A stretch of DNA of 64,000 nt from Candidatus Collierbacteria bacterium (GTDB lineage Bacteria; Patescibacteriota; Microgenomatia; UBA1400; JACPES01): positions 5,895 to 69,894 of the forward strand of contig JACPES010000005.1 in the NCBI GenBank assembly GCA_016183365.1. The letters run 5' to 3'. Numbering within the stretch: position 1 is the first letter of the stretch; each line of letters starts with the position of its first letter. Below are positions 11,298 to 62,266 of the stretch, piece after piece. A program made the translations under genes and the position numbers. Under the pieces are notes generated by a model that ran no database searches, had not been told where the DNA came from, and worked only from the letters and a program-made list of their open reading frames with translations.

Positions 11298-11825
11298 CTA
11301 TCGATGTCCCAGTGTGTAAAGTGTGTCTAAGTGATTAAATCCAATATTCTGCGGTAGTTTTTTGAAGAATTTAATCTCGGCTGTGTCATCGGCAGGCTTG
11401 GAAGGCCAGGCCTTTCCCGGAAAGGCCTGGCCTTTTTGATCTGGTTTGATGGTGCATCGATATACTAAGTCGACTACGTGACCGCGCGGATCACCGGTTA
11501 GATCGTCAAATGCTTCGGCCAACTTCACATTCTCAACTTTTATCCCCAATTCTTCCTTTGCCACCCGCTTAACGCAATTCATTAACGCTTCGCCTTTCAA
11601 AACAAAACTCCCCGGCAAATGCCAGTAGCCGGCAAACGGCAGCCTTTTGCGTTTGGTCAGCAATACTGCTTTGCTGTTAAGTTTCGCAAACTTCACATTA
11701 GCGGAAGTTTGCGAAACTTCTATATCTTGCTCAATCAGGAGATTCACGGCCACCCGCGGCGCGTATTTAAAACTTCTAAGAAACGTTTGAAAGGGAAGTT
11801 TCTTGGGATTCATATCAATAATCAA
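11298..11825 (-). CDS. NUDIX hydrolase
   Basis: Nudix box GEALMNCVKRVAKEELG (Gx5Ex7REUxEExGU). Carries two in-frame palindromic repeat insertions. Confidence 0.7.
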   Translation of the reverse strand: MIIDMNPKKLPFQTFLRSFKYAPRVAVNLLIEQDIEVSQTSANVKFAKLNSKAVLLTKRKRLPFAGYWHLPGSFVLKGEALMNCVKRVAKEELGIKVENVKLAEAFDDLTGDPRGHVVDLVYRCTIKPDQKGQAFPGKAWPSKPADDTAEIKFFKKLPQNIGFNHLDTLYTLGHR

Positions 11826-12459
11826 GACCCATAACGGCTTTACGGCCAGAATCGAACGGATGTTTGATATTTTTCATCTCCGTTACCAGTTCGGCCAAAT
11901 CAATCAACTGTTTCGGCGCGTTTCTGCCGGTCAAAATAATATGCGTCTGCCCGCGTTTAGAAATTAGATCAATTAAGTCAATCAGATCAATTAATTTATC
12001 ATTGACAGCGTTGATGGCTTCGTCGAGGATTAAAAGAAATAAATGGTTGGGATGGCTTAAATGGTTAAAAGATTTTGTAGCCCTTGTAGCCATTTTGATC
12101 ATTTTTCCGCTTAATAATTCTCTCGTTAATTCCAGCGCTTCTCCCGCCGCTTTCCGGTGTTCATTTGCGCTTGCATGATCCGTCGGCAATTTATAAAATC
12201 CCAGCCCCATTGGATAAATTTCAAAGCTCCCGATTTCCCTTCTTGTGCTTTTTTGTGCTTTTTTGTGCTTTTTTGTGCTTGCCAGCATTTCCGGCAAATT
12301 ATGCTCGCCGATCCTCCATCGTTTCTCCTTATACCATTGGATCATCGCCACCCGCTTCCCCTGCCCCACCGCTCTCATCGCCACCCCAAGCGCTGCACTC
12401 GTTTTCCCCTTTCCATTCCCAGTAAAAATATAAACCAATCCGATGGCATTATCTTTCAT
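11815..12459 (-). CDS. cobA: cob(I)yrinic acid a,c-diamide / cob(I)alamin adenosyltransferase (CobA/BtuR family)
   Basis: P-loop FTGNGKGKTSAALG and ILDE motif. Contains in-frame low-complexity insertions from tandem repeats (KKHKKAQKS, LIDLIDLIDLI, NHLSHPNH). Confidence 0.65.
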   Translation of the reverse strand: MKDNAIGLVYIFTGNGKGKTSAALGVAMRAVGQGKRVAMIQWYKEKRWRIGEHNLPEMLASTKKHKKAQKSTRREIGSFEIYPMGLGFYKLPTDHASANEHRKAAGEALELTRELLSGKMIKMATRATKSFNHLSHPNHLFLLILDEAINAVNDKLIDLIDLIDLISKRGQTHIILTGRNAPKQLIDLAELVTEMKNIKHPFDSGRKAVMGLDY

Positions 12460-19332: not shown

Positions 19333-21405
19333 TCATACCGAGCATTTACTCCATCCGCATTCCTGACAAGTTGCGCATCCATCCATCAACGTCAGTTCTC
19401 CCCTGCATTCCGGACACACTTCGTCAGGATTTCCTTTAACCGTTAACCTTTGACCTTTGACCTTCCCCACATTGAGCACTTGCTCTCTCCGGCAGCCGTC
19501 GCGATAAACCGTAATTCCTTTACATCCGGTTTCGAAAGCTAATAAATAAGCGTTTTTAATATCGTCGACTGTGGCCGAATTGGGCAAATTAATAGTTTTT
19601 GATACCGCCGCATCTGTATATTTTTGCCATGCGGCTTGCATTTTAATATGCCATCTGTAGGGAATTTCCATGGAGACACGGAAGATATCTCTTACTTCTT
19701 GCGGAATTTCTTTAATATTTTGGCAACTGCCGGACACAGAGACTCTCTCCAGAACACTCGGAAAACTTGGAACATCAGATAAATCAGAAGATCGGAGTTT
19801 CAGAGAACCAGAATTTCTGGTCGTCTGATTGTCTGATTTTCTGATTTTCCGGCTTTCAGAGTTTTCAGAGTTTTCTGAAATTACACCAACTGCTTTTGAA
19901 AATTCTTCGTTAACTTCTAGCAAACTCGTCTTCCCCAAATCTAAAATATTTTCCCTTCTGTACGCCAAGGCAAACAACGGTTCTATTCCACTGGAACAAC
20001 CGGCGATTATGGAAATAGTCCCGGTCGGGGCGACGGTGTTGACCGTTGAATTACGCATATGAGTGAAACCTTGCTTCTGCCAAACGCTATCTTCGAAAGC
20101 CGGGAAAGAACCACGACTTCTAGCCAGTTCCACCGAGGCGTCGCGGGCAGTATCATGGATAAATTTAGCGGTTTTTTTCGCTAGTTTCAACGCCGCTTCC
20201 GAGTCGTAACGAACCCCCAGTTTAATCAACATGTCCGCCCAGCCCATGACGCCGACGCCGATTTTTCTGGTGGTCAGGGCCATTTTTTTTAATTGGGGAA
20301 TCGGATAGTCGCAGAGGTCGATAACGTTGTCCTGAAAGTGAACCCCGAGACGGACGACCTCTTCTAATCGTTTCCAGTTGATTCTTTCCAGAACACTCGG
20401 AAAACTCTGAGAACCAGAGAAATCGGAATATCGGAGGATCGGAGAATCAGACGATCCGGCCTTCTGACTTTCTGATTTTCTGATATTCCGGCTTTCCGAG
20501 TATTCCGAGTTTTCTGAACTTACAAATCTTCCCAGGTTTATATTCCCCAAGTTGCATGACTCATACGGTAATAGGGCTTGTTCGCCACACGGGTTAGTTG
20601 CTTGATATATCCCTAATTTTGGCGTCGGACAATATTTATTCATGACATCTAAAAACACTAATCCCGGGTCGCCGACTTTCCAGGCCTGGGTGGCGATTAA
20701 ATTCCATAACTCCATCACGTCGATATCTTTTTCGGTGGCGCCGTCGTTGGGGTGAAATAAATGAATAGTCCCCTTTTTGGCTTTGACCTTTTCCATAAAT
20801 TCGTCTGTAGCCCCGACGCTGACGTTAAAATGGTAGAGCGTGGACGGATCTTCTTTGGACATAATAAATTCAACGATGTCCGGGTGATCAACCTTCAATA
20901 CTCCCATCAGGGCGGGGCGGCGGGCGCTGGCCTCGGCGATGGTGGCGGCGGAATAATTAAATAACCGCAGGAAAGAAACGGCGCCGGAACTGATGCCGCC
21001 GGTTGATTCCACCAAAGAACCCCGCGGCCTAAGATTTGTCAGCGGGATTCCAATCCCGCCGCCGGTCCGTAAAATCAGGGCCGCGTTGCGCAGTTGATCA
21101 TAAATATCTTCCAAGGAATCGGATAAAGGCAAAACATAGCAAGCCGAAAATTGTTTATGCTTGCGGCCGGCGTTAAGGAGGACCGAGCCGGAAAGATATT
21201 CCAAATTCGACATGGCCCGATAAAAATCATCGGCGACTTTTTTTATCTCCTGATCCGCTTTATCTCCCTTTACTCTTAGATATTTTTTGTCAGCCGACGC
21301 GATTAAGTTAGCTACCCGTCGGAACATCTGATCAGGGATTTCTTTTGGCAAAAGATAGCCGCGTTTTTTCAAAACTACCAAAGCGTTATCGGATAAATTT
21401 GTCAT
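19333..21405 (-). CDS. nrdJ: class II ribonucleotide reductase paralog (no ATP-cone)
   Basis: SACYVLP, ATNPCGEQAL, C-terminal CPECRGELTLMDGCATCQECGWSKC. Carries two in-frame palindromic elements. Confidence 0.85.
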   Translation of the reverse strand: MTNLSDNALVVLKKRGYLLPKEIPDQMFRRVANLIASADKKYLRVKGDKADQEIKKVADDFYRAMSNLEYLSGSVLLNAGRKHKQFSACYVLPLSDSLEDIYDQLRNAALILRTGGGIGIPLTNLRPRGSLVESTGGISSGAVSFLRLFNYSAATIAEASARRPALMGVLKVDHPDIVEFIMSKEDPSTLYHFNVSVGATDEFMEKVKAKKGTIHLFHPNDGATEKDIDVMELWNLIATQAWKVGDPGLVFLDVMNKYCPTPKLGIYQATNPCGEQALLPYESCNLGNINLGRFVSSENSEYSESRNIRKSESQKAGSSDSPILRYSDFSGSQSFPSVLERINWKRLEEVVRLGVHFQDNVIDLCDYPIPQLKKMALTTRKIGVGVMGWADMLIKLGVRYDSEAALKLAKKTAKFIHDTARDASVELARSRGSFPAFEDSVWQKQGFTHMRNSTVNTVAPTGTISIIAGCSSGIEPLFALAYRRENILDLGKTSLLEVNEEFSKAVGVISENSENSESRKIRKSDNQTTRNSGSLKLRSSDLSDVPSFPSVLERVSVSGSCQNIKEIPQEVRDIFRVSMEIPYRWHIKMQAAWQKYTDAAVSKTINLPNSATVDDIKNAYLLAFETGCKGITVYRDGCRREQVLNVGKVKGQRLTVKGNPDEVCPECRGELTLMDGCATCQECGWSKCSV
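19751..19880. repeat. palindromic TIR element copy 1 in nrdJ-C
   Basis: CCAGAACACTCGGAAAACTTGG...TTTCAGAGTTTTCAGAGTTTTCTGAA. Confidence 0.8.
20391..20520. repeat. palindromic TIR element copy 2 in nrdJ-C
   Basis: CCAGAACACTCGGAAAACTCTGAG...TTTCCGAGTATTCCGAGTTTTCTGAA. Confidence 0.8.
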
Positions 21406-27510: not shown

Positions 27511-27860
27511 GCGTGGACAGGATTTGTTTAAACGTTTCAACCTCTTTCGAAGTGTGGTAATTTCCTGAAATAGTTATTTGATTCTCAAGAGTGAATTGAA
27601 ACCTATAGCGGACAATTTCCATTTTATCAGACCCGTCTCGATATTCATATACGCCCTTAATATTGGTTTCATAATTCTTGCCCAGTATTTTAACCTGCAC
27701 TTTCCCTGTCTCTTGACATTTGCTATTTGCACAAACTGATCCTCCAGCTGTTGAAAAAACCAGATCAGTCCCAATGAACAGAGTTGGCTTATCGTAGTCA
27801 TCAATCGAAAATTTCGATGGAAATATTCTTACCGAATACTCTCTGTAAGAGGGCAGGATT

Positions 27861-27900
27861 AATTTAATATCCAGCGACGATCGTCGCTGGATATTAAATT
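27861..27900. terminator. perfect 40-bp palindrome between convergent genes (probable bidirectional terminator)
   Basis: AATTTAATATCCAGCGACGA|TCGTCGCTGGATATTAAATT followed by ATTTTAAA. Confidence 0.55.
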
Positions 27901-28029
27901 ATTTTAAACACCAGTCAATTTATTATTCTCAAATTTTCCAGACTTCTATCATTTTATTTCATTCAGTCTCAACCTTCCATATCCAATCTACTCTCACTCA
28001 TAATGAAAACTTTTATTCTACAAGCCTAT

Positions 28030-33829: not shown

Positions 33830-36355
33830 ATGGCGAAGACAAAACCAAGGAAGAAGGTAGAAAGTAGAAGAAAGAATGATAAGAATAAATCACTATTATT
33901 GTGGCAAAAATTTAAAAAATTTGCCTTTACTTTTGAATTGACACCGGAGAATATCCGGAGATCGTGGACTCGAAAAGGGCTAAGGGCCAAGGGCCAAGGG
34001 CCAAGGGCCAAAACTCGCCGCCGATTTCTTATTTACTCATTAGTATTTATTAGTTTATTCGTAATTATTAGTATTTATTTATTACGGGATATTCCCTCTC
34101 CAACCAAACTCGCTTCCGGCAACTTTCCGGTTTCGACTCAAATTTTCGACCGCAACGGCCAACTGTTGTACGAAATTTACGCCGACCAGAACCGGACGCC
34201 GATTAAACTTAAGGATCTGCCGCCGTTTGTCTTGCAGGCGACGATTGCGATTGAGGACAAGAATTTTTACCGGCATTTTGGGATTGATATTTTTGGAGTC
34301 GCCCGGGCGGCGGTGAAAACCCTGACCGGACAGCGGCTGGAGGGCGGATCGACGATTACCCAGCAATTGGTCAAAATGACGCTGTTGACGCCGGAGCGAA
34401 GTTTGAGCCGGAAAATTCGGGAGGCGGCGCTGGCGGTAGCGACGGAAGTTTTATATTCTAAAGATCAAATATTGGAGATGTATTTGAACCACGCGCCTTA
34501 CGGCGGAACGGCTTATGGAATCGAGCAGGCAGCCAAAAGATATTTTGGCAAAAGCGCCAAGGATTTGAGTTTGCCGGAGGCAGCCCTTCTGGCAGGATTG
34601 CCGCAGGCGCCATCAGCGTATTCGCCATTCGGGTCGCGGCCGGAGAACGCCAAACAACGGCAAAAAGATGTGTTGCGGCGGATGAAAGAAGATAGATATA
34701 TCACTTCCCAGGAAGAGAGGGAAACGGAAGAGGCGGTTTTGGAATATTCTACTGCGAATATTCCGATTCGGGCGCCACATTTTGTGTTATGGATAAAGGA
34801 TTTATTGATTGAAAAATTCGGCCAAAAAACAGTAGAGGGTGGAGGATTAAGTGTGACAACAACGCTGGACTTGGCGATTCAAGAAATGGCTCAAGCCAGC
34901 GTGTCAGCCGAGGTAAAAAAACTAAAAAGTTTGCGGGTGGGCAACGGAGCGGCGTTGGTCACCAATCCGGGGACCGGAGAAATTTTAGCGATGGTGGGGT
35001 CAAAAGATTATTTTGATACGGAAAACGACGGCAATGTCAATGTGACAATTCGGCCGCGCCAACCGGGATCCTCCATTAAGCCCGTTATGTACGCTGGCGG
35101 TTTTTCGACCGGAAAACTTACTCCCTCCACTATGTTGATTGATGCGCCGACCTGTTTCAGAGTTCTCAACCAACCGGATTATTGTCCCCAAAATTATGAC
35201 GGTCAGTCCCATGGTCCGGTTCAAATCAGGTTTGCTCTGGGCAATTCTTACAATATTCCGGCGGTAAAATCCCTGGCATATATCGGCCTGGAGGATATGA
35301 TCGCGACGGCGTCGGCAATGGGAATCTCGACTTTTACCGATCCCTCCCGCTATGGTTTGTCGTTAACCTTGGGCGGCGGAGAAGTTACTATGTCCGATAT
35401 GGCCACGGCTTTTGGAACCCTGGCAAATAACGGGGTAAAAGTGCCGCTAAACCCGTTTTTGAAGATAGAAAATTATAGAGGAGAGGTTTTATACCAACGG
35501 ACTACGGAGGAACGACTAAATGATCTTCGGAACACTCAGAATACTCAGAAAGCCAGAGAATCAGACAATCAGAAATTCGGAGAATCAGAGTCTCTGGACT
35601 TCCGATCCTCAGATTCTCTGATAATCCGGTCCTCTGAGTTTTCCGAGTTTTCTGAAATCATCCAGGCTATTCCGGCAGAAGCAGCATACTTGGTCAGTCA
35701 TATTCTCCTGGACAATAACGCCCGGACCGCCGCATTTGGGCCGAGTTCGCAACTGGTAATACCGGGGCAAGTGGTTTCGGTAAAGACCGGAACTACCAAT
35801 GACCTTCGGGACAACTGGACTTTGGGGTACACCCCGGAACGGCTAGTGGCGGTATGGGTGGGAAATAATGATAATAAACCAATGAACCAAGCTCTGGTTT
35901 CTGGCATCACCGGGGCAGCGCCGATTTGGCACAACATCATGAGACAACTGCTATGGAGTCGAAGGCCTATTTGGCCGGAAAGACCGGAAGGGGTGGTCGG
36001 AAAAGATGTCTGCGTTCTGACCGGTCTCTTACCGACGCCAGGAAATTTATGCGATACTCGGCATGAATTTTTCTGGGATAAGTTCTTGCCCGCGAATAAT
36101 TATCCCCTCCAACGGGAGATCTGGATTCGCAAAGATACCGGGACGCCGATTGATCCCAATATTCCGCTGGACCAGCAAGGAGAGTTAGAATTGCAAAACC
36201 ATACGGTTATTTCCGACCCGCTGGTGCCGGAATTCTGTTTGGACTGCGCGTATCCGGTAATTCAGGAGTTAAATCCCGACGGATCGGTGAAAGAGGAGCG
36301 GATCAATTACCCCGGGTCGGTGATTAACACTACGTCATTGCGAGCCCCGCCGTAG
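33830..36355 (+). CDS. class A penicillin-binding protein (transglycosylase + transpeptidase)
   Basis: EDKNFYRHFGIDIFGVARA, GGSTITQQLVK (GT51); SIKP, SYN, KTGT transpeptidase motifs. Contains a ~135-bp in-frame repeat, and its stop codon lies inside a repeat. Confidence 0.85.
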   Translation: MAKTKPRKKVESRRKNDKNKSLLLWQKFKKFAFTFELTPENIRRSWTRKGLRAKGQGPRAKTRRRFLIYSLVFISLFVIISIYLLRDIPSPTKLASGNFPVSTQIFDRNGQLLYEIYADQNRTPIKLKDLPPFVLQATIAIEDKNFYRHFGIDIFGVARAAVKTLTGQRLEGGSTITQQLVKMTLLTPERSLSRKIREAALAVATEVLYSKDQILEMYLNHAPYGGTAYGIEQAAKRYFGKSAKDLSLPEAALLAGLPQAPSAYSPFGSRPENAKQRQKDVLRRMKEDRYITSQEERETEEAVLEYSTANIPIRAPHFVLWIKDLLIEKFGQKTVEGGGLSVTTTLDLAIQEMAQASVSAEVKKLKSLRVGNGAALVTNPGTGEILAMVGSKDYFDTENDGNVNVTIRPRQPGSSIKPVMYAGGFSTGKLTPSTMLIDAPTCFRVLNQPDYCPQNYDGQSHGPVQIRFALGNSYNIPAVKSLAYIGLEDMIATASAMGISTFTDPSRYGLSLTLGGGEVTMSDMATAFGTLANNGVKVPLNPFLKIENYRGEVLYQRTTEERLNDLRNTQNTQKARESDNQKFGESESLDFRSSDSLIIRSSEFSEFSEIIQAIPAEAAYLVSHILLDNNARTAAFGPSSQLVIPGQVVSVKTGTTNDLRDNWTLGYTPERLVAVWVGNNDNKPMNQALVSGITGAAPIWHNIMRQLLWSRRPIWPERPEGVVGKDVCVLTGLLPTPGNLCDTRHEFFWDKFLPANNYPLQREIWIRKDTGTPIDPNIPLDQQGELELQNHTVISDPLVPEFCLDCAYPVIQELNPDGSVKEERINYPGSVINTTSLRAPP
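35526..35662. repeat. palindromic TIR element in-frame within PBP gene 1
   Basis: GGAACACTCAGAATACTCAGAAAG...GAGTTTTCCGAGTTTTCTGAA; translated as RNTQNTQKARESDNQKFGESESLDFRSSDSLIIRSSEFSEFSE. Confidence 0.8.
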
Positions 36356-37292: not shown

Positions 37293-39665
37293 ATGGACAG
37301 AAGGCGCCGCCGCGTTGGTTTTGACGTAGATGTTTTTTCCGGATTCAGGTTATTAGGTAAACCCCTTTATTACTTTCTATTTTTGGCGCTGCCATCCGGC
37401 ATTCTTTTAATTACCAGTCTTGCCGCTAGACTAAAAACTAATTCCCAAAAATATTCAAAAGGGGCCATCAGGAAAACCCGCAAGACTGCCAAACGGCTTG
37501 GTTTTCCAAAAATTGTTATTCCAAAAATTTCATTGCCGCCTATATCGATTTTCTATGCCGCAATTTTTTTATCTATTATTGGCATTCTATGGATGTTTTA
37601 TTTTTATATCTTCAAAGATCTTCCCACCCCTTATGATTTAAAAAAACACCAGCCAAAACTCAGTACCCATATTTTGGACCGCAATGAACAAGAGCTGTAT
37701 AAAATCTATAAGGACGAAAACCGGTCATTGATAAAAATAGATGAGCTCCCGTCATACTTAATTGACGCTACGGTTTCTATCGAAGATAAAGAATTTTGGA
37801 ATCATGCGGGTTTTTCACCCACTGGCATCATTCGAGCAATTTACCACAATTGGTTTATCTCCTTAGCCCTTAGCCCTAGACCCTCGACTCTTGCTACGCA
37901 GGGCGGATCTACCATCACCCAACAGCTAATAAAAAATACATTGTTAACTCCGGAAAAAACTATAAGACGAAAGGTGCGAGAATTAATTCTGTCCGTATGG
38001 GTAGAACGGGTATTTTCTAAAAAAGAAATTTTGGAAATGTATCTTAACGAAGTAAGCTTTGGCGGCACGGCTTACGGAATCCAGGAAGCCTCACAACAGT
38101 ATTTCGGAAAGAATGCCGTCTCCTTATCACTGGCTGAAGCCGCTTTATTAGCCGGTTTACCGGCCGCTCCGACCGCCTATTCTCCTTTCGGAATCAACCA
38201 AGGAAAAGCTAAAGAACGACAAGCCGATGTTTTAAGGAGGATGGCAGAAGACAAAAATATTTCTGCGGAATCAGCGGAAGAAGCCCTAAGGGAAGAACTT
38301 AAATTTTCCCAAAATTCGACCAATATTAAAGCCCCGCATTTTGTGATGTACGTCCGCGACTGGTTGGCTTCAAAGTTTGGAGAGGATATGGTAAACAACG
38401 GCGGCCTTAAAGTTATTACCACTCTTGATCTGGATTTACAGGAATTTGTTCAAAAAACGGTAACTGACGAAGTAGCCAGCCTAAAAAAATTAAAGGTTAC
38501 CAATGGAGCGGCGTTAGTGACTGATCCTAAAAGCGGGGAAATCTTGAGCCTGGTAGGTTCCCAAAATTATTTCGACTTTCAACATGACGGTCAAGTCAAC
38601 GTTGTTTTCCGTCCGCGCCAACCGGGATCGTCCATTAAGCCCATAATGTACGCTGCGGCATTCCAGAAAGGTTTTACCCCGGCCTCGGTGATTCTCGACG
38701 CCCCGATATCTTTTTCAACTCCCGGTTCTAAACCATACAGTCCGGTTAATTACGATGGTAAATTTCATGGCCCGATCCCAATTAGGACCGCTTTAGCCAG
38801 TTCTTACAATGTTCCGGCAGTTAAAGTTCTGTCAACTATCGGAGTTAATATTATGATAGATCAAGGAGAAGCCATGGGGATAAACACCTGGGGCGACAGA
38901 AAAAGGTTTGGTTTATCGCTGACTTTGGGTGGCGGAGAAATTACCATGGCAGATATGGCGGAAGCATACGGAACGATAGCAAATTATGGGGTCTATGTTC
39001 CGCTAAATCCAATACTCAAAGTTGAAAATAGTCAGGGAAAAGTGTTGTTTCAGAAAACTCCGAATAGTCAGAATGTCGGAACGTCAGACAGTCAGACAGT
39101 CGGAAATTCTGATTCTCAGATTTTTCCGAGTATTCCGAACAGGGCTATGCCCGCCGGAGTAGCTTTTCAATTAATTGATATCTTGTCTGACCCGATCGCC
39201 CGAGCTCCGGCATTCGGGACCAGATCAGTCTTAAATATCCCTGGCCATCAGGTGGCGGTTAAAACCGGCACTACCAATAATCTTCGGGACAACTGGACAT
39301 TCGGCTTTACGACTGACTTCGTAGTATCTGCCTGGGTGGGCAATAACGATAATTCTCCGATGAGCTATATTGCTTCCGGAATTACCGGGGCATCTCCGAT
39401 TTGGTCAAGAATTACCCAAGGCATTTTAAGCCAGAGAAAAACTCCGCACGTCTTTCCCCAACCCCAAGATTTAGTGACTATAAAAATCTGCGCTCTAACC
39501 GGACAATTAGCATGCGAAGATTGTCCGGTCCGGGAAGAATTTTTTATTCCCGGGACTGAACCCAAAACCGCCTGCCGTCCGGAGACGATCGATGAAATCA
39601 GACGCAAACAGGAAGAATCAAAAAATAAAGACCGGATTCTGGATGGGGCTGCCTCCAGACGCTAA
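37293..39665 (+). CDS. class A penicillin-binding protein paralog
   Basis: EDKEFWNHAGF, GGSTITQQLIK; SIKP, SYN, KTGT. Contains an ~80-bp in-frame repeat (39061-39140). Confidence 0.85.
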   Translation: MDRRRRRVGFDVDVFSGFRLLGKPLYYFLFLALPSGILLITSLAARLKTNSQKYSKGAIRKTRKTAKRLGFPKIVIPKISLPPISIFYAAIFLSIIGILWMFYFYIFKDLPTPYDLKKHQPKLSTHILDRNEQELYKIYKDENRSLIKIDELPSYLIDATVSIEDKEFWNHAGFSPTGIIRAIYHNWFISLALSPRPSTLATQGGSTITQQLIKNTLLTPEKTIRRKVRELILSVWVERVFSKKEILEMYLNEVSFGGTAYGIQEASQQYFGKNAVSLSLAEAALLAGLPAAPTAYSPFGINQGKAKERQADVLRRMAEDKNISAESAEEALREELKFSQNSTNIKAPHFVMYVRDWLASKFGEDMVNNGGLKVITTLDLDLQEFVQKTVTDEVASLKKLKVTNGAALVTDPKSGEILSLVGSQNYFDFQHDGQVNVVFRPRQPGSSIKPIMYAAAFQKGFTPASVILDAPISFSTPGSKPYSPVNYDGKFHGPIPIRTALASSYNVPAVKVLSTIGVNIMIDQGEAMGINTWGDRKRFGLSLTLGGGEITMADMAEAYGTIANYGVYVPLNPILKVENSQGKVLFQKTPNSQNVGTSDSQTVGNSDSQIFPSIPNRAMPAGVAFQLIDILSDPIARAPAFGTRSVLNIPGHQVAVKTGTTNNLRDNWTFGFTTDFVVSAWVGNNDNSPMSYIASGITGASPIWSRITQGILSQRKTPHVFPQPQDLVTIKICALTGQLACEDCPVREEFFIPGTEPKTACRPETIDEIRRKQEESKNKDRILDGAASRR
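39061..39140. repeat. short copy of the palindromic TIR element in PBP gene 2
   Basis: GTCAGAATGTCGGAACGTCAGACAGTCAGACAGTCGGAAATTCTGATTCTCAGATTTTTCCGAGTATTCCGAAC. Confidence 0.65.
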
Positions 39666-41567: not shown

Positions 41568-42544
41568 AAGTGAGTCAAACCTTTCTTTGCCCCAATAAAC
41601 TTAACTACATTCGCCGCCTGTTTTTTCCCCAATTCAACAGATTCTTCAATTGATTTCCCTCTCATAAATCCGACCACAAACCCAGAACCGAAAGCGTCGC
41701 CGGCGCCGGTAGAATCAACCATTTTGGTTTTAATTCCTTTATACCAGAAGCAATTTCCATTGTGACAAATCCGCCCTCCCCTTTTACCGTCGGTGATTAC
41801 CAAAATCGTTTCCGGCAAAATAGGGCAATGGTCAGCTTTCCAAACCGTTTCATCAATATAATTAACGCCAAAAAATTCTGTGGCTTCTTGACGATTCAAT
41901 TGCAAAACCTTGACGGCGTCTATTAAGGCCTGGCCTTGTCCAAACAATCCAGACAAGAATCCAGACAAGGCCAGGCCTTTTCTGACAACAGCAATTTCGG
42001 CTACACCAGGATTCCAGAAAACCTTCCTTTCCTTCTCCTTTCCCCAAACCAAAACTTTTTCCACTAATTCCATATCCCCGCCGACGCTGGTTAAATAAAT
42101 CCAACCCCCGGGCTTTAAAATCATTCCCAATTTGTCAAACGGAATATCACCGGCGATCAACATTTTTGAAGCCCCACGATAGGTAACAATCGAATTCTTT
42201 CCCTCGCTGGACAATAAAATTACCGATACGGCCGTAGTCTCGTTTTCTTCCTGAGTAACAAAAGACCGATCCAAACCCTCACGTTCAAGTTCAATTAAAA
42301 TTGTTGCTGACGCCGGGTCTTTGCCTATTTCAATAATCGGCGCCGCCTGAAAACCGTTTCTGGCAAAAGCCACCGCTGAATTGGTCGCGCCGCCGCCACT
42401 GGTCATCACTAATTCCTGGGCTTCGATCTTACCTTCATATTTCTCGCAAAGATAAACGCCCCGCTCGTGGTGATCAATCTTAAATTGGTCTGATTTTAGG
42501 AAAATATCCAATGTCGCCGAGCCGATGGAAACCACATCAAGCAT
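41564..42544 (-). CDS. PfkB-family carbohydrate kinase (ribokinase-like)
   Basis: C-terminal DSTGAGDAFGSGFV motif and N-terminal GGGATN. Confidence 0.7.
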   Translation of the reverse strand: MLDVVSIGSATLDIFLKSDQFKIDHHERGVYLCEKYEGKIEAQELVMTSGGGATNSAVAFARNGFQAAPIIEIGKDPASATILIELEREGLDRSFVTQEENETTAVSVILLSSEGKNSIVTYRGASKMLIAGDIPFDKLGMILKPGGWIYLTSVGGDMELVEKVLVWGKEKERKVFWNPGVAEIAVVRKGLALSGFLSGLFGQGQALIDAVKVLQLNRQEATEFFGVNYIDETVWKADHCPILPETILVITDGKRGGRICHNGNCFWYKGIKTKMVDSTGAGDAFGSGFVVGFMRGKSIEESVELGKKQAANVVKFIGAKKGLTHL

Positions 42545-44184: not shown

Positions 44185-45216
44185 TTACTTTACCACTTCC
44201 AACACAGACTTGAAAATATTTTCCGCCGTCATTTCATACCTTTCCAATAATTCTCCCGCCTCTCCTGATTCTCCGAAACAATCCTTCATCCCGACTCTTT
44301 TTATCGGGACAGGACAAAATTCAGACAAAACTTCAGCCACCGCCCCACCCAAACCTCCTGTAATCTGATGTTCTTCCACCGTCACCACCCGGCCGGTTTT
44401 GCGGGCGGATTTGACGATGGTCTGGACATCGAGCGGCTTAATGGTGGAAACGTTGATAACTTCTGCAGAAAGTGGACTACTAAAATGGTTAGAATGGCTA
44501 GAATGGTCAAAATGGCTAGAAGCCCGCAACTTATCTTTATAACCATTTAAGCCATTTAAACCATTGTAACCATTTTGTAGCGCTTCTGCCGCTTTTATCG
44601 CCTCATACACCAACGGCCCGCAAGCCACAATTGTAACGTCTGTTCCTTCTTTCAATATTTCGGCTTTTCCGATCCGAAAAGGGATATCGCGATGGCAAAA
44701 AACTGGCGTTTTTTCCCGAGTCAGGCGAATGTAAATCGGACCCTTGTTTTCCGCCGCCGCTAGGGTTGCCGCCCGGGCCTGATTATAATCGGCCGGAACC
44801 AGAACTGTCATATTCGGCAACACCCGAGCCAAAGCGATATCTTCCAATCCTTGATGGGTAGCCCCGTCCGGCCCATTAGATAAGCCGGAATGCCCGCCGA
44901 TGATTTTGACATTAAGATTTGCATAACAAATTGAAGCCCTAATCTGCTCCCAATTCCTCCCCGGATTAAAAACTGCAAAACTGGTTATAAAAGGAATAAA
45001 TCCCTCTGCCGCCAGCCCGGCGGCAATTCCGGCCATATTCTGCTCGGCTACTCCGACTTGAATAAATCGATCCGGAAATTGTTTGGCAAAATCAGTTACC
45101 TTCAAACTTTCACCTAAATCCGCCGTTAAAACCACCACTTGACGGTCGGTTTTCCCCAATTCCACCAAAGCCTCTCCAAAACCGTCTCTTGTCGCTTTCA
45201 TATCATTACTTTTCAT
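44185..45216 (-). CDS. transketolase C-terminal subunit (pyrimidine-binding + C-terminal domains)
   Basis: GVAEQNMAGIAAGLA, PDGATHQGLEDIA; with an in-frame NGYNGLNGLNGYK...HSSHSNH repeat-derived insert. Confidence 0.8.
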   Translation of the reverse strand: MKSNDMKATRDGFGEALVELGKTDRQVVVLTADLGESLKVTDFAKQFPDRFIQVGVAEQNMAGIAAGLAAEGFIPFITSFAVFNPGRNWEQIRASICYANLNVKIIGGHSGLSNGPDGATHQGLEDIALARVLPNMTVLVPADYNQARAATLAAAENKGPIYIRLTREKTPVFCHRDIPFRIGKAEILKEGTDVTIVACGPLVYEAIKAAEALQNGYNGLNGLNGYKDKLRASSHFDHSSHSNHFSSPLSAEVINVSTIKPLDVQTIVKSARKTGRVVTVEEHQITGGLGGAVAEVLSEFCPVPIKRVGMKDCFGESGEAGELLERYEMTAENIFKSVLEVVK

Positions 45217-46156
45217 AGATCCCCGGAAATCCTTCCCCCAATGTCCTTAGCCGATTAAGTTCTGCCAAAGCCTCTACCGCCTGACCCTTTTCCATCGGCG
45301 GAATCCCATGCCAATTTGGCATATTTTCCATAAATGCAACGCCTTTTCCCGGAATAGTATTGGCCATAATCCACACTGGCTTTCGATGGATACTTAAATC
45401 AAAATCTAAAGCATTTGAAATCTCCTGAAAATTGTGACCATTGATAGACAAAACATGGAAACCAAACGCTCCCAGTTTTTCCGCCAGTGGTTCCAATGGC
45501 ATTATTTCTTCTGTGAATCCGCCGATTTGGATATGATTTCTATCGGTAATAAAAGTCAGATGATCCAAATTATTTTTGGAAGCGAACATCGCCGCTTCCC
45601 AAGTTTGCCCTTCCTGTAACTCGGCATCGGAGGTGAAACAAATGACACGGGGGAGATGAACAAGAGAATGGCTAGAATGGTTAGAATGGCTATAAAGGTT
45701 TTTTTCTTTCTGACCATTTAAACCATTGTAACCATTTTTAACCATTTCCTGTTTTTTTCTCACCGCCATCGCTACTCCGACTGCCGTGCTCACTCCCTGA
45801 CCCAATGGACCGGAAGTATTTTCTATCCCCGGGGCGCTTCTGAAATGCGGATGACCTTGTAGTCTGGAATTAATCTTTCTAAAAGTCAGCAGTTCTTCTT
45901 TCGGAAAATAACCGGCATGAGCTAAAGCCGCATACCACACCGGACAAATATGACCATTGGATAATATAATTCTATCCCGATTTTCATCCCACGGATTTTT
46001 CGGATCAAGATTCAGCTTACCCCCGAAATAAACAGCGGTAAATACATCCGCCATTCCCAAAGATCCGGCAGAATGACCGGAACCGGCGGAGACAAGCATT
46101 TTAATTACGTCTTGTCTAATTTCGTTGGCCTTGTCTTGGAGTTCTTCGAGAGTCAT
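45206..46156 (-). CDS. transketolase N-terminal subunit (TPP-binding)
   Basis: GHSAGSLGMADV, ILSNGH, GPLGQG; with an in-frame NGYNGLNGQ...HSNHSSHS insert. Confidence 0.8.
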   Translation of the reverse strand: MTLEELQDKANEIRQDVIKMLVSAGSGHSAGSLGMADVFTAVYFGGKLNLDPKNPWDENRDRIILSNGHICPVWYAALAHAGYFPKEELLTFRKINSRLQGHPHFRSAPGIENTSGPLGQGVSTAVGVAMAVRKKQEMVKNGYNGLNGQKEKNLYSHSNHSSHSLVHLPRVICFTSDAELQEGQTWEAAMFASKNNLDHLTFITDRNHIQIGGFTEEIMPLEPLAEKLGAFGFHVLSINGHNFQEISNALDFDLSIHRKPVWIMANTIPGKGVAFMENMPNWHGIPPMEKGQAVEALAELNRLRTLGEGFPGIYEK

Positions 46157-47520: not shown

Positions 47521-47559
47521 GATAAAACAATGGCTAAAATGGTTAAATGGCTACAATGG

Positions 47560-48045
47560 CTAAAAGTGATTTGCTTCAATCTTACGAATTTCATCAAGCC
47601 GTCGTTCATATCGCTTCTCTTTCACGTATGGTGTCGCGAGAAACATCCCGACCAATTTTTTTGCGCCAGCGAACTTAATTTCATCCGACGGCAAAATCAA
47701 GACATTCATGTCGTCATCGTGCCGACCGGCGCGGACTTGATTTGCCGAAAAGCCGATTGCCGCTCTGATTCCATCAATTTTGTTTACCGCCGCCGACGCC
47801 CCCACCCCGGAACCGCACAATAAAATTCCCATTGACCCCGAAGTATTTGTTACCGCTTTCCCCAGTTTTTCCGCGACCAATGGGTAATCATCGTTTGGAT
47901 CGAAAACCACTGCTCCCATATCAACTACTTCATATCCCAAGTTAATCAACCAAAGTTTAAGCTCTTCTTTTAATTTAAATCCCCGATGATCCGCCCCAAT
48001 ATAAATTTTCATGCTTTTTGAGCCAATGTAACCATTTTTAGCCAT
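47560..48045 (-). CDS. rpiB: ribose-5-phosphate isomerase B
   Basis: MKIYIGADHRGFKLKEEL core. The first 11 codons (MAKNGYIGSKS) are encoded by an AATGG-repeat, so the true start is probably Met12 (48012). Confidence 0.75.
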   Translation of the reverse strand: MAKNGYIGSKSMKIYIGADHRGFKLKEELKLWLINLGYEVVDMGAVVFDPNDDYPLVAEKLGKAVTNTSGSMGILLCGSGVGASAAVNKIDGIRAAIGFSANQVRAGRHDDDMNVLILPSDEIKFAGAKKLVGMFLATPYVKEKRYERRLDEIRKIEANHF

Positions 48046-48408
48046 TCAGCTAAAGCCGAGTTCGGCTTTAGCTCTTTCGCTCATCATATCCTGATGCCAA
48101 GGGGGATCGAAGATCAATTCCAGTCTTAAATCCTTATATGGATCAAAACCCGGAATATCCGCCAATGCCTGTCTGATCATTGGTTGGAAAACGGCCGCCA
48201 GCGGACACCCCGGAGAGGTTAGGGTCATGGTGATAGCTATGAGTTGTTGGTTATTAGTTATTGGTTGATGATCGTTTTTTGTTTTTTGTTTTTTGTTTTT
48301 TGTTAATTTAATCTCGTATACCAGTCCCAAATCCACGATATTCATTCCCAGCTCCGGATCAATCACTTGCCGCAATCGACCTTCAATTAGTTTTTTGGTT
48401 ATTACCAT
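48046..48408 (-). CDS. DUF59/MIP18-family (SufT-like) Fe-S assembly protein
   Basis: IDPELGMNIVDLGLVY...SPGCP motif. Has an in-frame KNKKQKTKN insert from a (GTTTTTT)n run. Confidence 0.55.
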   Translation of the reverse strand: MVITKKLIEGRLRQVIDPELGMNIVDLGLVYEIKLTKNKKQKTKNDHQPITNNQQLIAITMTLTSPGCPLAAVFQPMIRQALADIPGFDPYKDLRLELIFDPPWHQDMMSERAKAELGFS

Positions 48409-51727: not shown

Positions 51728-52513
51728 TTAAAAAAACTTTTCCGTGTGAATATGTTCTTTGTTTATACCAACTTCGGCAAGTTTTGTCGATAGCTCTTCA
51801 ATCATGAATTTATTCCCGCAGAGATAGAAACACATTGTTGATTGTTGATTGTCCCGGCTTTGCCGAGGATCCCGCTTCGCCCTGTACCAGACGGTACGGG
51901 GCTTCGCGGGATTGATTGTTGATTGTTTTGTATATTCGATTAGATGTTGAGTCACGTGCCCGAAGTGGAGAGGCCAATTTTTCGGCGGACGGGACAGTAT
52001 CAAGTCCCACTTGAAATTCTGATATTCTTTTTCCAGATTATCGAAGTCTTCAACCCAGAAACAGTCCTCCTGCCGCCTCATCCCCCACCAGAGACGAATC
52101 GGCCCTTGATGTTTTTTGGTTATGAGCAGGTCAAGAATCATTGATCTTATTGGCGAAATTCCGGAACCGGTGGCGACAAAAAGCAATTGGTGATTAACGC
52201 AAGCGTCCTGGACAACGAAATTGCCGAAGGGGGCGACAAATTTCACTTGCTCTCCCGGTTTTAAGTTTTTAAGATATTGGGATCCTGATCCTTGAGGCTT
52301 GACGTCAACCAGTAACTCAACCGCGTGACTCATCTCCGGCCGGGAAGCGATGGAATAGTTGCGGCGAATACCCTTGGCGGCTTCAACAGTTAAAATCAGA
52401 TACTGGCCGGCCTGAAATTCGATTTTGTCGGGATTCACTAACTCCAGATGAAGATACTGGAAAGAACCGGCGATAAGTTGATGTTCGGAAACACGAGCGG
52501 TGAATGATTGCAT
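51728..52513 (-). CDS. FAD/NAD(P)-binding oxidoreductase (ferredoxin-NADP reductase-like)
   Basis: RNYSIAS (RxYS FAD motif), GSGISP NAD(P) motif. Start chosen at the internal Met abutting sufU. Contains a GC-rich palindromic in-frame insert. Confidence 0.6.
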   Translation of the reverse strand: MQSFTARVSEHQLIAGSFQYLHLELVNPDKIEFQAGQYLILTVEAAKGIRRNYSIASRPEMSHAVELLVDVKPQGSGSQYLKNLKPGEQVKFVAPFGNFVVQDACVNHQLLFVATGSGISPIRSMILDLLITKKHQGPIRLWWGMRRQEDCFWVEDFDNLEKEYQNFKWDLILSRPPKNWPLHFGHVTQHLIEYTKQSTINPAKPRTVWYRAKRDPRQSRDNQQSTMCFYLCGNKFMIEELSTKLAEVGINKEHIHTEKFF

Positions 52514-52515
52514 TG

Positions 52516-52911
52516 TTATATTGCTACATTGCGAATCGCTTTTTGCAAAGCAACAAGCGGTAGGATAGCACATTTAATTCTAGCATGAGAGATGTCGCCG
52601 CCAAGCAACTCGACCATGCCAGCTTGACTTATTTGACTAATTTGGCTAATGCGCCGAATTTGCTTGACCCTTTCCGACAGGAGCGACGCTCCGGCAGTGC
52701 TTATGGCGCACCCTACTCCTCTCCAGGCAATTTCGCCAATCTCTGTTCTCTGTTCTCTGTTCGCTGATCTCTTTACTCTAACCTGAAACTCAATCAAGTC
52801 TCCGCAGCTGGCGTTGGCTTCTTGGACGACAGCATCGGGATTTTTTAACTCACCGAAGTTGCGGGGGTGTTGATAGTGGTCGATGATGAGATCGTGATAG
52901 ATGTTGGACAT
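52516..52911 (-). CDS. sufU: SUF-system NifU/IscU-like scaffold (SufU)
   Basis: NASCGD and GCAIS cysteine motifs. Has an in-frame ISQISQISQ insert from a tandem 9-mer. Confidence 0.75.
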   Translation of the reverse strand: MSNIYHDLIIDHYQHPRNFGELKNPDAVVQEANASCGDLIEFQVRVKRSANREQRTEIGEIAWRGVGCAISTAGASLLSERVKQIRRISQISQISQAGMVELLGGDISHARIKCAILPLVALQKAIRNVAI

Positions 52912-54366: not shown

Positions 54367-54432
54367 TTTGACTAATATATTTTGTTAACCAATGAGATAC
54401 AAACGTATTTTACTCTTCACCATCATAAAAAC

Positions 54433-54456
54433 TTCAATTATTTAAATAATTGAAGT
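54433..54456. promoter_or_regulatory. CTTCAATTATTTAAATAATTGAAG palindrome in the sufD-sufS spacer
   Basis: 24-bp perfect palindrome; its core is identical to the site at 1174-1191. Confidence 0.5.
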
Positions 54457-54475
54457 TTTTTAGTAAATTAATAAA

Positions 54476-60529: not shown

Positions 60530-62266
60530 ATGATACCTAAATCCTATCAATGGCTTTTGTGGGGTAGTTTTATTTTTTTCCTGGGGGCAATGCTATTGCG
60601 TCAGGAATCGGCAATAACTCAAGACTTAGGCCGGCATTTAAGATTAGGAGAAATGATTGTGGCCGGCGGAGACGAAAGAAAATGCGCGCTGTTTAGCAAC
60701 TGCCTGACGTTTACACACCCCGACTATCTGTTTGTTAACCATCACTGGGGAAGTGAGATAATCTTTTACCTCATCCATAAATGGGCAGGATTTTCCGGAA
60801 TCATCATTTTCAAAGCAATTATTCTGGGGCTGACGTTTTTAATTACAGTTCTCCATGCATCACAGTTTCTGAACACTCTGAAAACTCAGAGAACCGGAGA
60901 TCCAGAGAATCGGATAATCAGAAAATCAGATATCCGACTGTCCGGCGTTCTGAATTTCCGACAATCTGGATTTCTGAGCATTCCGAGTTTTCCGAACCTT
61001 GCCATCGCCGTCGCGCTGACATTTCTCTCCATCCAAATGATGGCCGATCGGCTAACGACCAGGCCGGAAATTTTTGGATATTTGCTGTTCGCGATATTGT
61101 TTTGGGTGTTGGACAGACGTAAAGAGAGATTGCCACGTCATCCCTCGACAAGCTTGGGACTCCTCGCAATGACGGTAACGACCTCCTTGATAATTTTAAT
61201 TTGGGTGAATTTACATATCTCTTTTATTTTTGGCTTGATTTTGGTTTGGATTTGGGCAGGGAGTCGACTATTAACGTCATTGCGAGGGAACGTTAGCGAC
61301 CGCGGCAATCTCCAAGATCGCCATGTCCCGATTTCATCGGGGCTCTCGATGACTCCGGTGGCGATTGCAACTGCGTCTACTATTGCGTCTACTATGATAA
61401 TCATTTTCAACCCTTCCGGCCTCCGCGGCGCCCTAATGCCGCTATCAATTCTCAAGGATTACGGGTACACCGTCGTTGAAAACATGACTCCGTTTTTCCT
61501 TTCTGCCTTTAAGCCTCAACCGGAATATTGGATTTACACCCTATTGTTGCTAACTGTCACTGTTTTATTAATTATTTCCCCAAAGAAACCGCCTCTCTTC
61601 TCTATCTTGACCTTTTATATCTTTTCTATCTTTCCGTTGATAGCCGTGAGGCACTTGCCGTTTTTTGGCTTGACGACGGTACCGATTTTAACCCTGTTGG
61701 TTGCTGTGAAGTTTCGCAAACTTCACAATGATGAAAAGTTTGCGAAACTGCCGATTCTAGTGGCGAGTAGTTTGCTAATCGCGGCGTTGACCAATCCAAT
61801 TCCGCTCGTTTATGGCAAATTGTCACCGATTGGTTTGACAATAGATTCGCGACACAATCAGGCCATTGACTTTGTTAAGCAAAATAATCTTCAGGGGCAA
61901 ATGTGGAACAATTACGATATCGGCAGTTTCCTGGAATGGGCTATCCCTGAACATAAAACCTTTGTCGACGGACGGCCGGAAGCGTTTCCGGTCGGATTTT
62001 TCCAAGATGTCTATATCCCGATGCAAGAGGATAAAACAGCTTGGGATTTGGTAGCAACTAAATACGATATCCAGTGGATATTCGTAGCCCTGACTGACGC
62101 CACCCCCTGGTTTATCAAATGGTGGCAGATGATCCGAGACCATAAAGATTGGCGAATTGTATATATTGATAACTTCAGCGCTGTTTTGGTCAAAGTCGAT
62201 AGTCAGAACAACTTGATTGGACCTCAAGGGAAAACCAAAATTCTGAACATCAATAGTCTGGATTGA
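60530..62266 (+). CDS. polytopic membrane protein, probable GT-C-fold glycosyltransferase
   Basis: More than 10 TM helices and a C-terminal soluble domain. Contains at least three different in-frame repeat insertions (60868-60990, 61276-61353, 61706-61749). Confidence 0.45.
   Translation: MIPKSYQWLLWGSFIFFLGAMLLRQESAITQDLGRHLRLGEMIVAGGDERKCALFSNCLTFTHPDYLFVNHHWGSEIIFYLIHKWAGFSGIIIFKAIILGLTFLITVLHASQFLNTLKTQRTGDPENRIIRKSDIRLSGVLNFRQSGFLSIPSFPNLAIAVALTFLSIQMMADRLTTRPEIFGYLLFAILFWVLDRRKERLPRHPSTSLGLLAMTVTTSLIILIWVNLHISFIFGLILVWIWAGSRLLTSLRGNVSDRGNLQDRHVPISSGLSMTPVAIATASTIASTMIIIFNPSGLRGALMPLSILKDYGYTVVENMTPFFLSAFKPQPEYWIYTLLLLTVTVLLIISPKKPPLFSILTFYIFSIFPLIAVRHLPFFGLTTVPILTLLVAVKFRKLHNDEKFAKLPILVASSLLIAALTNPIPLVYGKLSPIGLTIDSRHNQAIDFVKQNNLQGQMWNNYDIGSFLEWAIPEHKTFVDGRPEAFPVGFFQDVYIPMQEDKTAWDLVATKYDIQWIFVALTDATPWFIKWWQMIRDHKDWRIVYIDNFSAVLVKVDSQNNLIGPQGKTKILNINSLD
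60868..60990. repeat. palindromic TIR element in-frame in the 60530..62266 membrane-protein gene
   Basis: TCTGAACACTCTGAAAACTCAGAG...GCATTCCGAGTTTTCCGAAC. Confidence 0.8.

Follow-up and report, generated by a model that had tools for sequence, protein, structure and literature searches.

AATGG palindromes in a pentose-phosphate operon

Short palindromic repeats built from an AATGG unit and its complement CCATT interrupt both subunits of a split transketolase, and a corrinoid adenosyltransferase, in a 64-kb stretch of DNA (the window, by which we mean the whole stretch analysed) from a tiny-genome groundwater bacterium, Candidatus Collierbacteria, of the Candidate Phyla Radiation (CPR), Microgenomates. 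We argue that these arrays represent one family of small, non-autonomous, hairpin-forming repeats, similar to the palindromic elements of Rickettsia and to intragenic repetitive extragenic palindromic (REP) sequences, which survives in permissive protein loops and intergenic spacers; we put the probability of this interpretation at roughly 0.7. The 343-residue tktC protein, insert included, is identical on eight contigs from independent runs and in a metagenome-assembled genome (MAG) deposited at NCBI as Candidatus Collierbacteria bacterium, which places the window in a CPR/Microgenomates genome and excludes an assembly artefact as the source of the arrays. The genes concerned are as follows:

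44185–45216, minus strand: tktC, C-terminal subunit of a split transketolase (Transket_pyr and Transketolase_C domains)
45206–46156, minus strand: tktN, N-terminal subunit of the split transketolase
47560–48012, minus strand: rpiB, 150 residues from a probable start at an internal ATG, with the reading frame open back to 48045
11815–12459, minus strand: CobA_CobO_BtuR ATP:corrinoid adenosyltransferase gene (cobA), enlarged by two repeat-derived inserts totalling about 40 residues

The AATGG family occupies five sites in the window, which are listed without strand:

44477–44580: AATGG palindrome in tktC, translated on the minus strand as QNGYNGLNGLNGYKDKLRASSHFDHSSHSNHFSS
45659–45753: AATGG palindrome in tktN, with arms at 45665–45698 and 45714–45747, translated as EMVKNGYNGLNGQKEKNLYSHSNHSSHSLVH
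about 12036–12106: degenerate copy in the CobA/CobO/BtuR gene, in a partly different frame, read as KMATRATKSFNHLSHPNH
47529–47565: single AATGG arm of four units, filling the 39-nt rpiB–rpe spacer and overlapping the rpiB stop codon (47560–47562)
48021–48047: single CCATT arm of two to three units, between the stop codon of a FeS_assembly_P gene (48046–48048) and the conserved rpiB ATG (48010–48012)

The general build of these elements is a series of tandem 7–9-nt units in one arm with their complements in the other. The AATGG version is an interrupted palindrome composed of AATGGYTAG repeated three to four times, a spacer, and TNNAACCATT repeated three to four times. In the tktC copy the left arm (44482–44521) comprises four AATGGYTAG units and the right arm (44537–44576) four TNNAACCATT units, separated by a 15-nt spacer, and the arms are 78% complementary. 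The motif AATGGNTANAATGG, allowing at most one mismatch, has 15 matches in the window against an expectation of 0.64, a number reached by none of 100 shuffled sequences. The stems reach 4–7 bp into apparent host codons, as CTAC..GTAG in tktC and AACAG..CTTGTT in tktN. Single-strand folding gives z-scores for the two strands of −5.5 and −6.7 (tktC copy) and −7.2 and −5.5 (tktN copy); the hairpin of the cobA copy scores only −1.2, and we call that copy decayed because of this value. A preference for one RNA strand, proposed from G·U asymmetry, was dropped when the copies proved inconsistent. The encoded peptides read NGYNGLNG...HSSHSNH in tktC, NGYNGLNG...HSNHSSHS in tktN and KSFNHLSHPNH in cobA. 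An earlier note on this DNA had reported five array sites, their translations as peptides rich in asparagine, glycine, histidine and serine, and the inverted arrangement of their halves; the positions given there hold for all five arrays to within a few bases, the translations match (including MAKNGYIGSKS upstream of rpiB), and the inverted halves are those of the interrupted palindromes just described.

Short tandem arrays are common in the window generally. We counted 83, covering 2.5 kb, compared with 7–15 in dinucleotide shuffles (an eightfold enrichment); their periods range from 6 to 21 nt, most being 7, 8 or 9 nt, and 63 of the 83 lie inside open reading frames (ORFs). Some intragenic arrays with periods of 7 or 8 nt keep the frame only through their total length. 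A sliding-window minimum free energy scan of the whole window gave no discrimination against a background of −27 ± 8 kcal/mol, and a strict ungapped palindrome scan misses imperfect arrays. An Rfam covariance-model scan of the window returned no family matching the elements; the only hits above the gathering threshold were two tRNAs and a group I intron.

Inserts lie in permissive loops of the transketolase subunits

The split transketolase of Carboxydothermus hydrogenoformans (PDB 6YAJ/6YAK) provides a solved structure for comparison. The tktC alignment with 6YAJ breaks at query residues 214–249 (chain 240–244), placing about 31 additional residues in the linker that joins the Pyr domain to the C-terminal one, while the tktN alignment with 6YAK breaks at query residues 133–170 (chain 163–170), placing about 30 additional residues in the loop before the thiamine diphosphate (ThDP) motif. 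These loops are 3 and 6 residues long in the solved structures and 34 and 36 residues long in the window subunits. An AlphaFold2 model of tktC assigns both domains a pLDDT above 90 and residues 215–248 a pLDDT of 37–66, and the insert position, an inter-domain linker of low pLDDT, is compatible with the fold. Relative to Salmonella CobA, the window protein has some 40 additional residues, lying between the two aligned blocks. The in-frame insertions in core enzymes proposed by the earlier note are thus real additions with respect both to orthologues and to 6YAJ/6YAK, and the alignment it had recommended places them at the tktC domain linker and the tktN pre-ThDP loop. They are read in frame as low-complexity, probably disordered loops.

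A separate feature of tktN is the motif near residue 175, which is SDA in the window and in the relatives closest to it but SDG in the sister clade; the canonical ThDP/Mg-binding motif is GDG, and it reads GDGE in the tktN of Carboxydothermus and Bacteroidales.

Turnover of repeats at the transketolase loops

Four tkt loci were compared, from orthologues 75–80% identical to the window, and each holds a different combination of repeats (L numbers denote the loci compared):

Window: full AATGG palindrome in the tktN loop; full AATGG palindrome in the tktC linker
L004: tktN loop empty (KMKQAVSLPR); tktC linker short and non-palindromic
L006: one arm in the tktN loop (GAT GGT TTA GAT GGT AAA GAT GGC); CGGTT/AACCG palindrome in the tktC linker
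L005: TCAGAA-family palindrome, unrelated to AATGG, in the tktN loop; TCAGAA-family palindrome in the tktC linker

Among more distant tktC linkers, L070 has a further palindromic family, L071 again has the AATGG/GATGG family, and the palindrome of L072 is larger; between them, the window, L005, L006 and L070 carry four different palindromic families at this one linker. The tktN site of L072 holds a single arm where relatives hold a full palindrome. In 120 tktC homologues, all 20 insertions of at least 8 residues fall at the Pyr/C-domain linker, and in 120 tktN homologues all insertions fall in one loop, except for two of 6 residues. Site-specific targeting of the two transketolase loops was considered and is not needed, given that a filter for permissive sites accounts for the positions of the indels.

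By neighbour joining of tktN, the window, P0242/P0243, P0249 and P0250 fall in two sister clades and have the junction RKK[QR]EMVK[ND]G in common, and the lineages interleaved among them have nothing, remnants (MASHSNHFN, MANNG) or other arrays. With a junction shared across sister clades and losses interleaved, the insertion in tktN must be old within the group, and it has since been repeatedly truncated, lost or replaced. Several related lineages have the insert too, in modified form, and it is not private to the window lineage, a breadth that the earlier note had missed; conservation in unrelated lineages, which that note had named as evidence that would count against it, was looked for and is not seen.

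At the orthologous tktN site of L076 (563–1513), all three unit pairs read GATGG/CCATC, where the window (45659–45753) and L077 read AATGG/CCATT. The pattern suggests a concerted change of both arms; in a covariation control the three double changes were matched by 92 of 500 shuffles, which with three sequences is not significant. The GATGG variant also occurs in L006, within the window's own clade, and the variant and the host tree therefore disagree.

Several repeat families share the genome

The AATGG repeat is not the single oddity that the earlier note took it for. It belongs to a set of several families, palindromic or made of tandem units, spread throughout the genes of this genome, the others being a TCAGAA family of about 125 bp and the AAGGCCWGGCCTT and AAGTTTCGCAAACTT families, with the CGGTT/AACCG palindrome in the tktC loop of a relative as a further example. 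TCAGAA elements span about 105–135 bp, with outer 9-mers and inner 8-mers that have a TCNGA core. Their termini are TTCAGAACACTCNGAAAACTC...GAGTTTTCTGAA, also given as the inverted ends TTCAGAAMACTC...GAGTTTTCTGAA in an alignment of 36 copies. The seven sites in the window affect three class II ribonucleotide reductases (four copies), two penicillin-binding proteins and one membrane protein, and are listed here together with one site of the smaller AAGGCCWGGCCTT family (all without assigned strand):

14671–14776: TCAGAA, class II ribonucleotide reductase paralogue A
17698–17831: TCAGAA, ribonucleotide reductase paralogue B; hairpin z-score −11
19750–19877: TCAGAA, ribonucleotide reductase paralogue C, second site
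20389–20517: TCAGAA, ribonucleotide reductase paralogue C, first site
35527–35646: TCAGAA, in an 841-residue ORF (33830–36355, plus strand), a putative class A penicillin-binding protein by sequence
39050–39129: weaker TCAGAA-like palindrome, in a second penicillin-binding protein (37293–39665, plus strand)
60869–60995: TCAGAA, in a 578-residue membrane protein (60530–62266, plus strand)
41925–41979: small AAGGCCWGGCCTT palindrome, in a PfkB kinase gene

Further AAGGCCWGGCCTT copies occur at 11402–11434 (a NUDIX gene) and 15525–15559 (ribonucleotide reductase A), and AAGTTTCGCAAACTT is another small palindrome found inside ORFs. A metagenome scan for TCAGAA termini returned 37 stretches. Counting the window's own, 43 copies are available, of which 20 fall within open frames at least 200 codons long, in both orientations and several phases, while eight are closed in all six frames and are therefore intergenic. 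All six oriented copies have their GAACACTC end at the low-coordinate side of the plus strand, whether the host gene is on the plus or the minus strand, and the GC skew across the window is nearly monotonic. The uniform orientation hints at a replication-strand bias such as accompanies single-stranded DNA (ssDNA) hairpin transposition, at a two-sided probability of only about 0.03. When arms were exchanged between the 36 aligned copies, native and chimeric elements folded equally well (−26.1 against −26.2 kcal/mol; p = 0.70), giving no sign of copy-specific covariation.

Compared with the compact orthologues in L075 and L073, the extra residues of FNR, PRT, FeS_assembly_P, SufS, tktN and tktC consist of palindromes or short tandem arrays. 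Overall, elements inserted in frame were found in transketolase N and C, CobA, the three ribonucleotide reductases, two penicillin-binding proteins, PfkB, NUDIX, PRT, FNR and RecF. The FNR-like gene (51728–52573, minus strand) has a 24-residue insert at 51848–51919, the core of which is a GC-rich palindrome (51869–51912) flanked on both sides by heptamer arrays (ATTGTTG, TTGATTG), resembling direct repeats around an insertion. The three class II (B12-dependent-type) ribonucleotide reductases lie in tandem on the minus strand (13615–16170, 17239–19302 and 19333–21405), are 45–46% identical to each other and each end in a CxxC...CxxC tail; three paralogues are unusual for a small CPR genome. They share insertion sites pairwise, A with C and B with C.

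Distribution beyond the window

Genomes, one per species, were scanned with the pattern (AATGGN4)3...(CCATTN4)3, for which about zero chance matches are expected, and 26 stretches were found. A RecF-like ORF in another Collierbacteria MAG (L022) has two in-frame inserts of the AATGG family. The remaining carriers of AATGG-type arrays are a Saprospiraceae MAG (seven loci), rumen Bacteroidales, another Bacteroidetes MAG, a Terriglobia MAG and two Chlamydiae MAGs, in which the arrays are mostly intergenic and some stand directly upstream of start codons. The Saprospiraceae MAG, CBDCVJ01, has at least seven palindromic arrays of AATGG-type 9-mers (L007, L008, L014, L015, L017, L027, L032), of which at least two (L008, L027) end directly upstream of a start codon. 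Single-arm AATGG arrays were found inside ORFs on metagenome contigs L050 and L051, and further copies of the family in L071, L076 and L077. The frame in which the element is read differs by host, giving KMATRATKS and KMAKMASMAK elsewhere, which argues against a selected peptide. Viral contigs yielded no match for either the AATGG or the TCAGAA pattern and hence no sign of a phage vector.

Seven Bacteroidales matches lie beside tktC, and a specific association of AATGG with transketolase was considered on this account; it is probably coincidental. The array there is the 3' end of an inserted four-helix-bundle ORF (23S_rRNA_IVP-like) within a 2.6-kb tktN–tktC insertion, and the seven loci are apparently one orthologous locus in related species. 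In rumen Bacteroidales (L016, 1378–3730) the AATGGG palindromic array closes the last ORF of this insertion and stands 70–95 bp upstream of tktC. The tktN–tktC junction is itself a landing site for small selfish genes, containing a PIN toxin–antitoxin pair in L005, L006 and L070 and a 23S_rRNA_IVP four-helix-bundle gene in L072 (2383–2739).

The arms on either side of rpiB

The earlier note had read the upstream array as an N-terminal extension of RpiB. The stretch is indeed open in frame, as MAKNGYIGSKS; the NCBI annotation, however, begins at the internal ATG and gives 150 residues, close to the roughly 149 of 119 homologues, and because all homologues have this length the extension is doubtful and probably not translated. 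The CCATT arm is more likely a 33-nt spacer following the upstream FeS_assembly_P gene. Nor does rpiB lie inside one element. The gene order FeS_assembly_P–rpiB–rpe–LOG–tktN–tktC is ancestral, being kept in L073, L074, L075 and L077, where the spacers around rpiB are compact or contain other single-arm arrays (units CGAAAAnnn in L073 and ATTAACNN in L074). Capture of rpiB within two arms, or its mobilisation by them, is ruled out by this conserved order in relatives without the arms. Each of the two spacers in the window holds one arm, oriented such that pairing across the gene is possible; the arrangement may be due to chance, may be what is left of two full elements, or may be a long-range stem under selection.

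Origin of the repeats

The elements display mobility-like presence and absence between relatives, form multi-locus families with conserved ends, and survive in frame at permissive sites only. These observations favour small selfish repeats whose insertion and spread would be largely indiscriminate, with purifying selection removing all but the in-frame copies in permissive loops and the copies in spacers. Such a filter would produce both the large insertions at a single loop per subunit and the presence of different families at the same loop across lineages. After insertion, an array would change through slippage of its units, through loss of one arm, which leaves a single-arm remnant, and through decay of the kind seen in cobA. 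Our best guess is that they spread by a process based on hairpins or ssDNA, or one resembling gene conversion. Several points weigh against this interpretation. Searches with Pfam and NCBIfam detected no transposase or Y1/RAYT domain within the 64-kb window, and no consistent target-site duplication emerged from the filled-versus-empty comparison at tktN or from the 36-copy TCAGAA alignment, although the palindromic ends could hide a duplication of 1–2 bp. Four of the five AATGG sites are clustered in 3.6 kb of one operon, which is unexpected for random insertion. Single-arm arrays, and arrays in orthologous spacers whose units differ by lineage, could have formed on the spot with no mobility, and the A-to-G and T-to-C switches in L076 suggest a hairpin that is maintained or re-templated, unlike a purely decaying relic.

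In a competing account the arrays originate where they stand: slippage generates an array at a prone loop or spacer, fold-back or template switching copies its inverted complement, and the similarity of units reflects a mutational bias in the replication and repair of the lineage. Single arms at sites where relatives hold the full palindrome (tktN of L006 and L072; L050, L051) would be expected on this account, as would the different units in the orthologous spacers of L073 (CGAAAAnnn) and L074 (ATTAACNN), the stems that extend 4–7 bp into apparent host codons, the eightfold, genome-wide enrichment of arrays with periods of 7, 8 and 9 nt, and the AATGG-type 9-mer palindromes of unrelated phyla. 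The TCAGAA family, whose architecture of about 125 bp and whose conserved ends recur across dozens of unrelated loci and contigs, is however beyond local slippage, and AATGG units are identical down to the YTAG spacer bases in tkt, RecF and other genes; we consider an origin in place unlikely. It is also improbable, somewhat more so, that the hairpins are functional nucleic acids selected to coordinate the pentose-phosphate operon, whether as stems for RNase III-type processing or stability, as a long-range stem across rpiB, or by pausing ribosomes at domain boundaries. The concentration of AATGG sites in that operon, the complementary single arms bracketing the rpiB coding sequence, the three A-U to G-C double changes in L076, the tktC insert exactly at a domain boundary and the array kept 70–95 bp upstream of tktC in rumen Bacteroidales would all suit a function of this kind. 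Close relatives nevertheless lack the element (L004, and the spacers of L075 and L077) or have an unrelated family in its place, RecF and CobA also contain the AATGG family, and in cobA the hairpin has been lost; folding favours neither strand consistently with respect to the gene, chimeric TCAGAA arms fold as well as native ones, the L076 changes do not exceed the shuffle control for three sequences, and no Rfam family matches.

Selection might instead act on the protein, with the His/Asn/Ser/Gly-rich loops serving to bind metals or to form an interaction surface, given that HSxHS repeats could chelate metals, that the same type of peptide occurs in both transketolase subunits of one genome, and that the tktN insert has persisted across several lineages. 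This seems very unlikely when the same loops of sister lineages are empty or hold unrelated peptides, different hosts read the element in different frames, AlphaFold2 gives the insert low confidence, and palindromy is a property of the DNA that the function of a peptide does not need. Short repeats and hairpins can also confuse assemblers; the chance of a chimeric or mis-assembled repeat is negligible in view of the identical tktC on independent contigs, the intact reading frames, and the related inserts in many independent assemblies. Returning to selfish palindromic repeats as the preferred explanation, we offer one speculative extension, to which we attach only a small chance of being correct. 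Tandem-unit hairpins may be selfish DNA that templates itself without a transposase, by folding back, re-copying each arm from the other, growing through register slippage, and converting into hairpins or permissive loops. The concerted A-to-G and T-to-C switch in the three unit pairs of L076 would follow from re-copying of the arms. The same process might lie behind the TAACTGA arrays, the short tandemly repeated repetitive (STRR) sequences and the AATGG-type 9-mer palindromes of Bacteroidota, Chlamydiota and Acidobacteriota, and might be a major source of extra protein segments in the Collierbacteria clade and perhaps in other CPR bacteria.

Relationship to known repeats

[quoted passage not shown] What is new is the host lineage, the tandem-unit arms, the frequency of single arms, and the turnover of unrelated families at two loops of one enzyme; a full-text literature search found, within the collection searched, no account of elements like these in CPR bacteria. 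For RPEs (Ogata et al. 2000, summarised in PMC10969869), in-frame insertion in housekeeping genes and an unknown way of moving are on record. In both cases a bacterium with a small genome carries dispersed palindromic families of about 100–150 bp, inserted in frame in many housekeeping genes that are unrelated to one another, translated and compatible with the fold. The repeats of the window are likewise multi-copy, dispersed and about 70–150 bp long, with strong hairpins, and are inserted in housekeeping genes with the ORF intact. They differ in having a CPR/Microgenomates host (RPEs belong to Alphaproteobacteria), arms of tandem 7–9-nt units, common single arms, several families that replace one another at the same loop, and copies in spacers as well. 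The likeness concerns the mode of working only; we do not claim membership, and no sequence relationship is expected.

Intragenic REPs with GTAG or CGTC tags (Di Nocera et al. 2013) lie inside genes for known proteins, often as dimers encoding 20–30 amino acids, and for them too in-frame insertion in housekeeping genes and an unknown or uncertain way of moving are on record (PMC3733652). They too are palindromes within genes, some at about the same site across species, and the selection-filter argument fits both. REPs are single stem-loops of 20–40 bp, many of them linked to RAYT genes, whereas the stems described here are multi-unit and 70–135 bp long, show no tag except the CTAC...GTAG end of the tktC copy, and have no RAYT in the window. 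The preponderance of intragenic arrays (63 of 83) and the absence of a Y1/RAYT domain from the window equally set them apart from REPIN-RAYT systems. Bacterial MITEs that form in-frame fusions include ERIC, BOX, QMITE1 and the Anabaena MITEs (PMC10969869), and share terminal inverted repeats, small size, multiple copies, strain-variable presence and occasional translation; MITEs normally have target-site duplications and a cognate insertion sequence; here no consistent duplication emerged from the comparisons, and no such sequence was found in the 64-kb window.

The TAACTGA heptamer arrays of Beggiatoaceae, Cyanobacteria and Bacteroidetes (MacGregor 2015), for the spread of which there was 'no mechanism evident' (PMC4679880), and the STRR sequences of cyanobacteria are alike in that a specific unit of 7–9 nt occurs as short tandem arrays at many loci in distant phyla. 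At least two of the Saprospiraceae AATGG-type arrays stand directly upstream of start codons as TAACTGA repeats do, a likeness confined to the Saprospiraceae matches. TAACTGA arrays are overwhelmingly intergenic direct repeats, with only one inverted set reported; the window has 7–9-nt units in several families, mostly intragenic and often two-armed, the prominent ones being of the latter sort. Palindromic amphipathic repeat coding elements (PARCELs; PMC2996958) and organellar palindromic repeats (for example in Volvox; PMC2670323) are also palindromic, potentially coding, and selfish or horizontally spread, but PARCELs are tandem modules of surface repeat proteins and the organellar repeats are mostly non-coding, whereas in the window it is cytosolic enzymes that are interrupted, each time by a single element.

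CPR bacteria count as extremely streamlined, and yet selfish repeats are tolerated here in transketolase, ribonucleotide reductase, penicillin-binding proteins and RecF. The phenomenon of selfish DNA within genes is extended from Rickettsia to a free-standing radiation that holds a large share of bacterial diversity, and gives a concrete origin to the lineage-specific insertions in proteins by which CPR gene annotation is complicated. The inserts mark loops of essential enzymes that tolerate 30–50 disordered residues, and the natural series of filled, empty, half and replaced alleles is a data set on the origin and spread of short-unit palindromes, questions that RPEs, CGTC REPs and TAACTGA/STRR arrays also pose.

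Other features of the window

The only recombinase-like gene of the window is a weak Xer-like tyrosine recombinase, a 240-residue ORF at 3498–4220 (plus strand), which scores well below family cut-offs (E = 1e-12). The group I catalytic intron lies at 2053–2228 (plus strand; Rfam RF00028, 66 bits), and its flanks resemble tRNA halves, with TGCGGGT upstream and ...GGGGAGCGTAACCCCGGACCCGCAACCA downstream; ARAGORN makes no tRNA call there. A perfect 42-bp intergenic palindrome at 27860–27901 (TAATTTAATATCCAGCGACGA and TCGTCGCTGGATATTAAATTA as its two halves), and two intergenic palindromes with the core ATTATTTAAATAATTGAAGT at 54427–54460 and 1170–1195, could each be an operator or a terminator.

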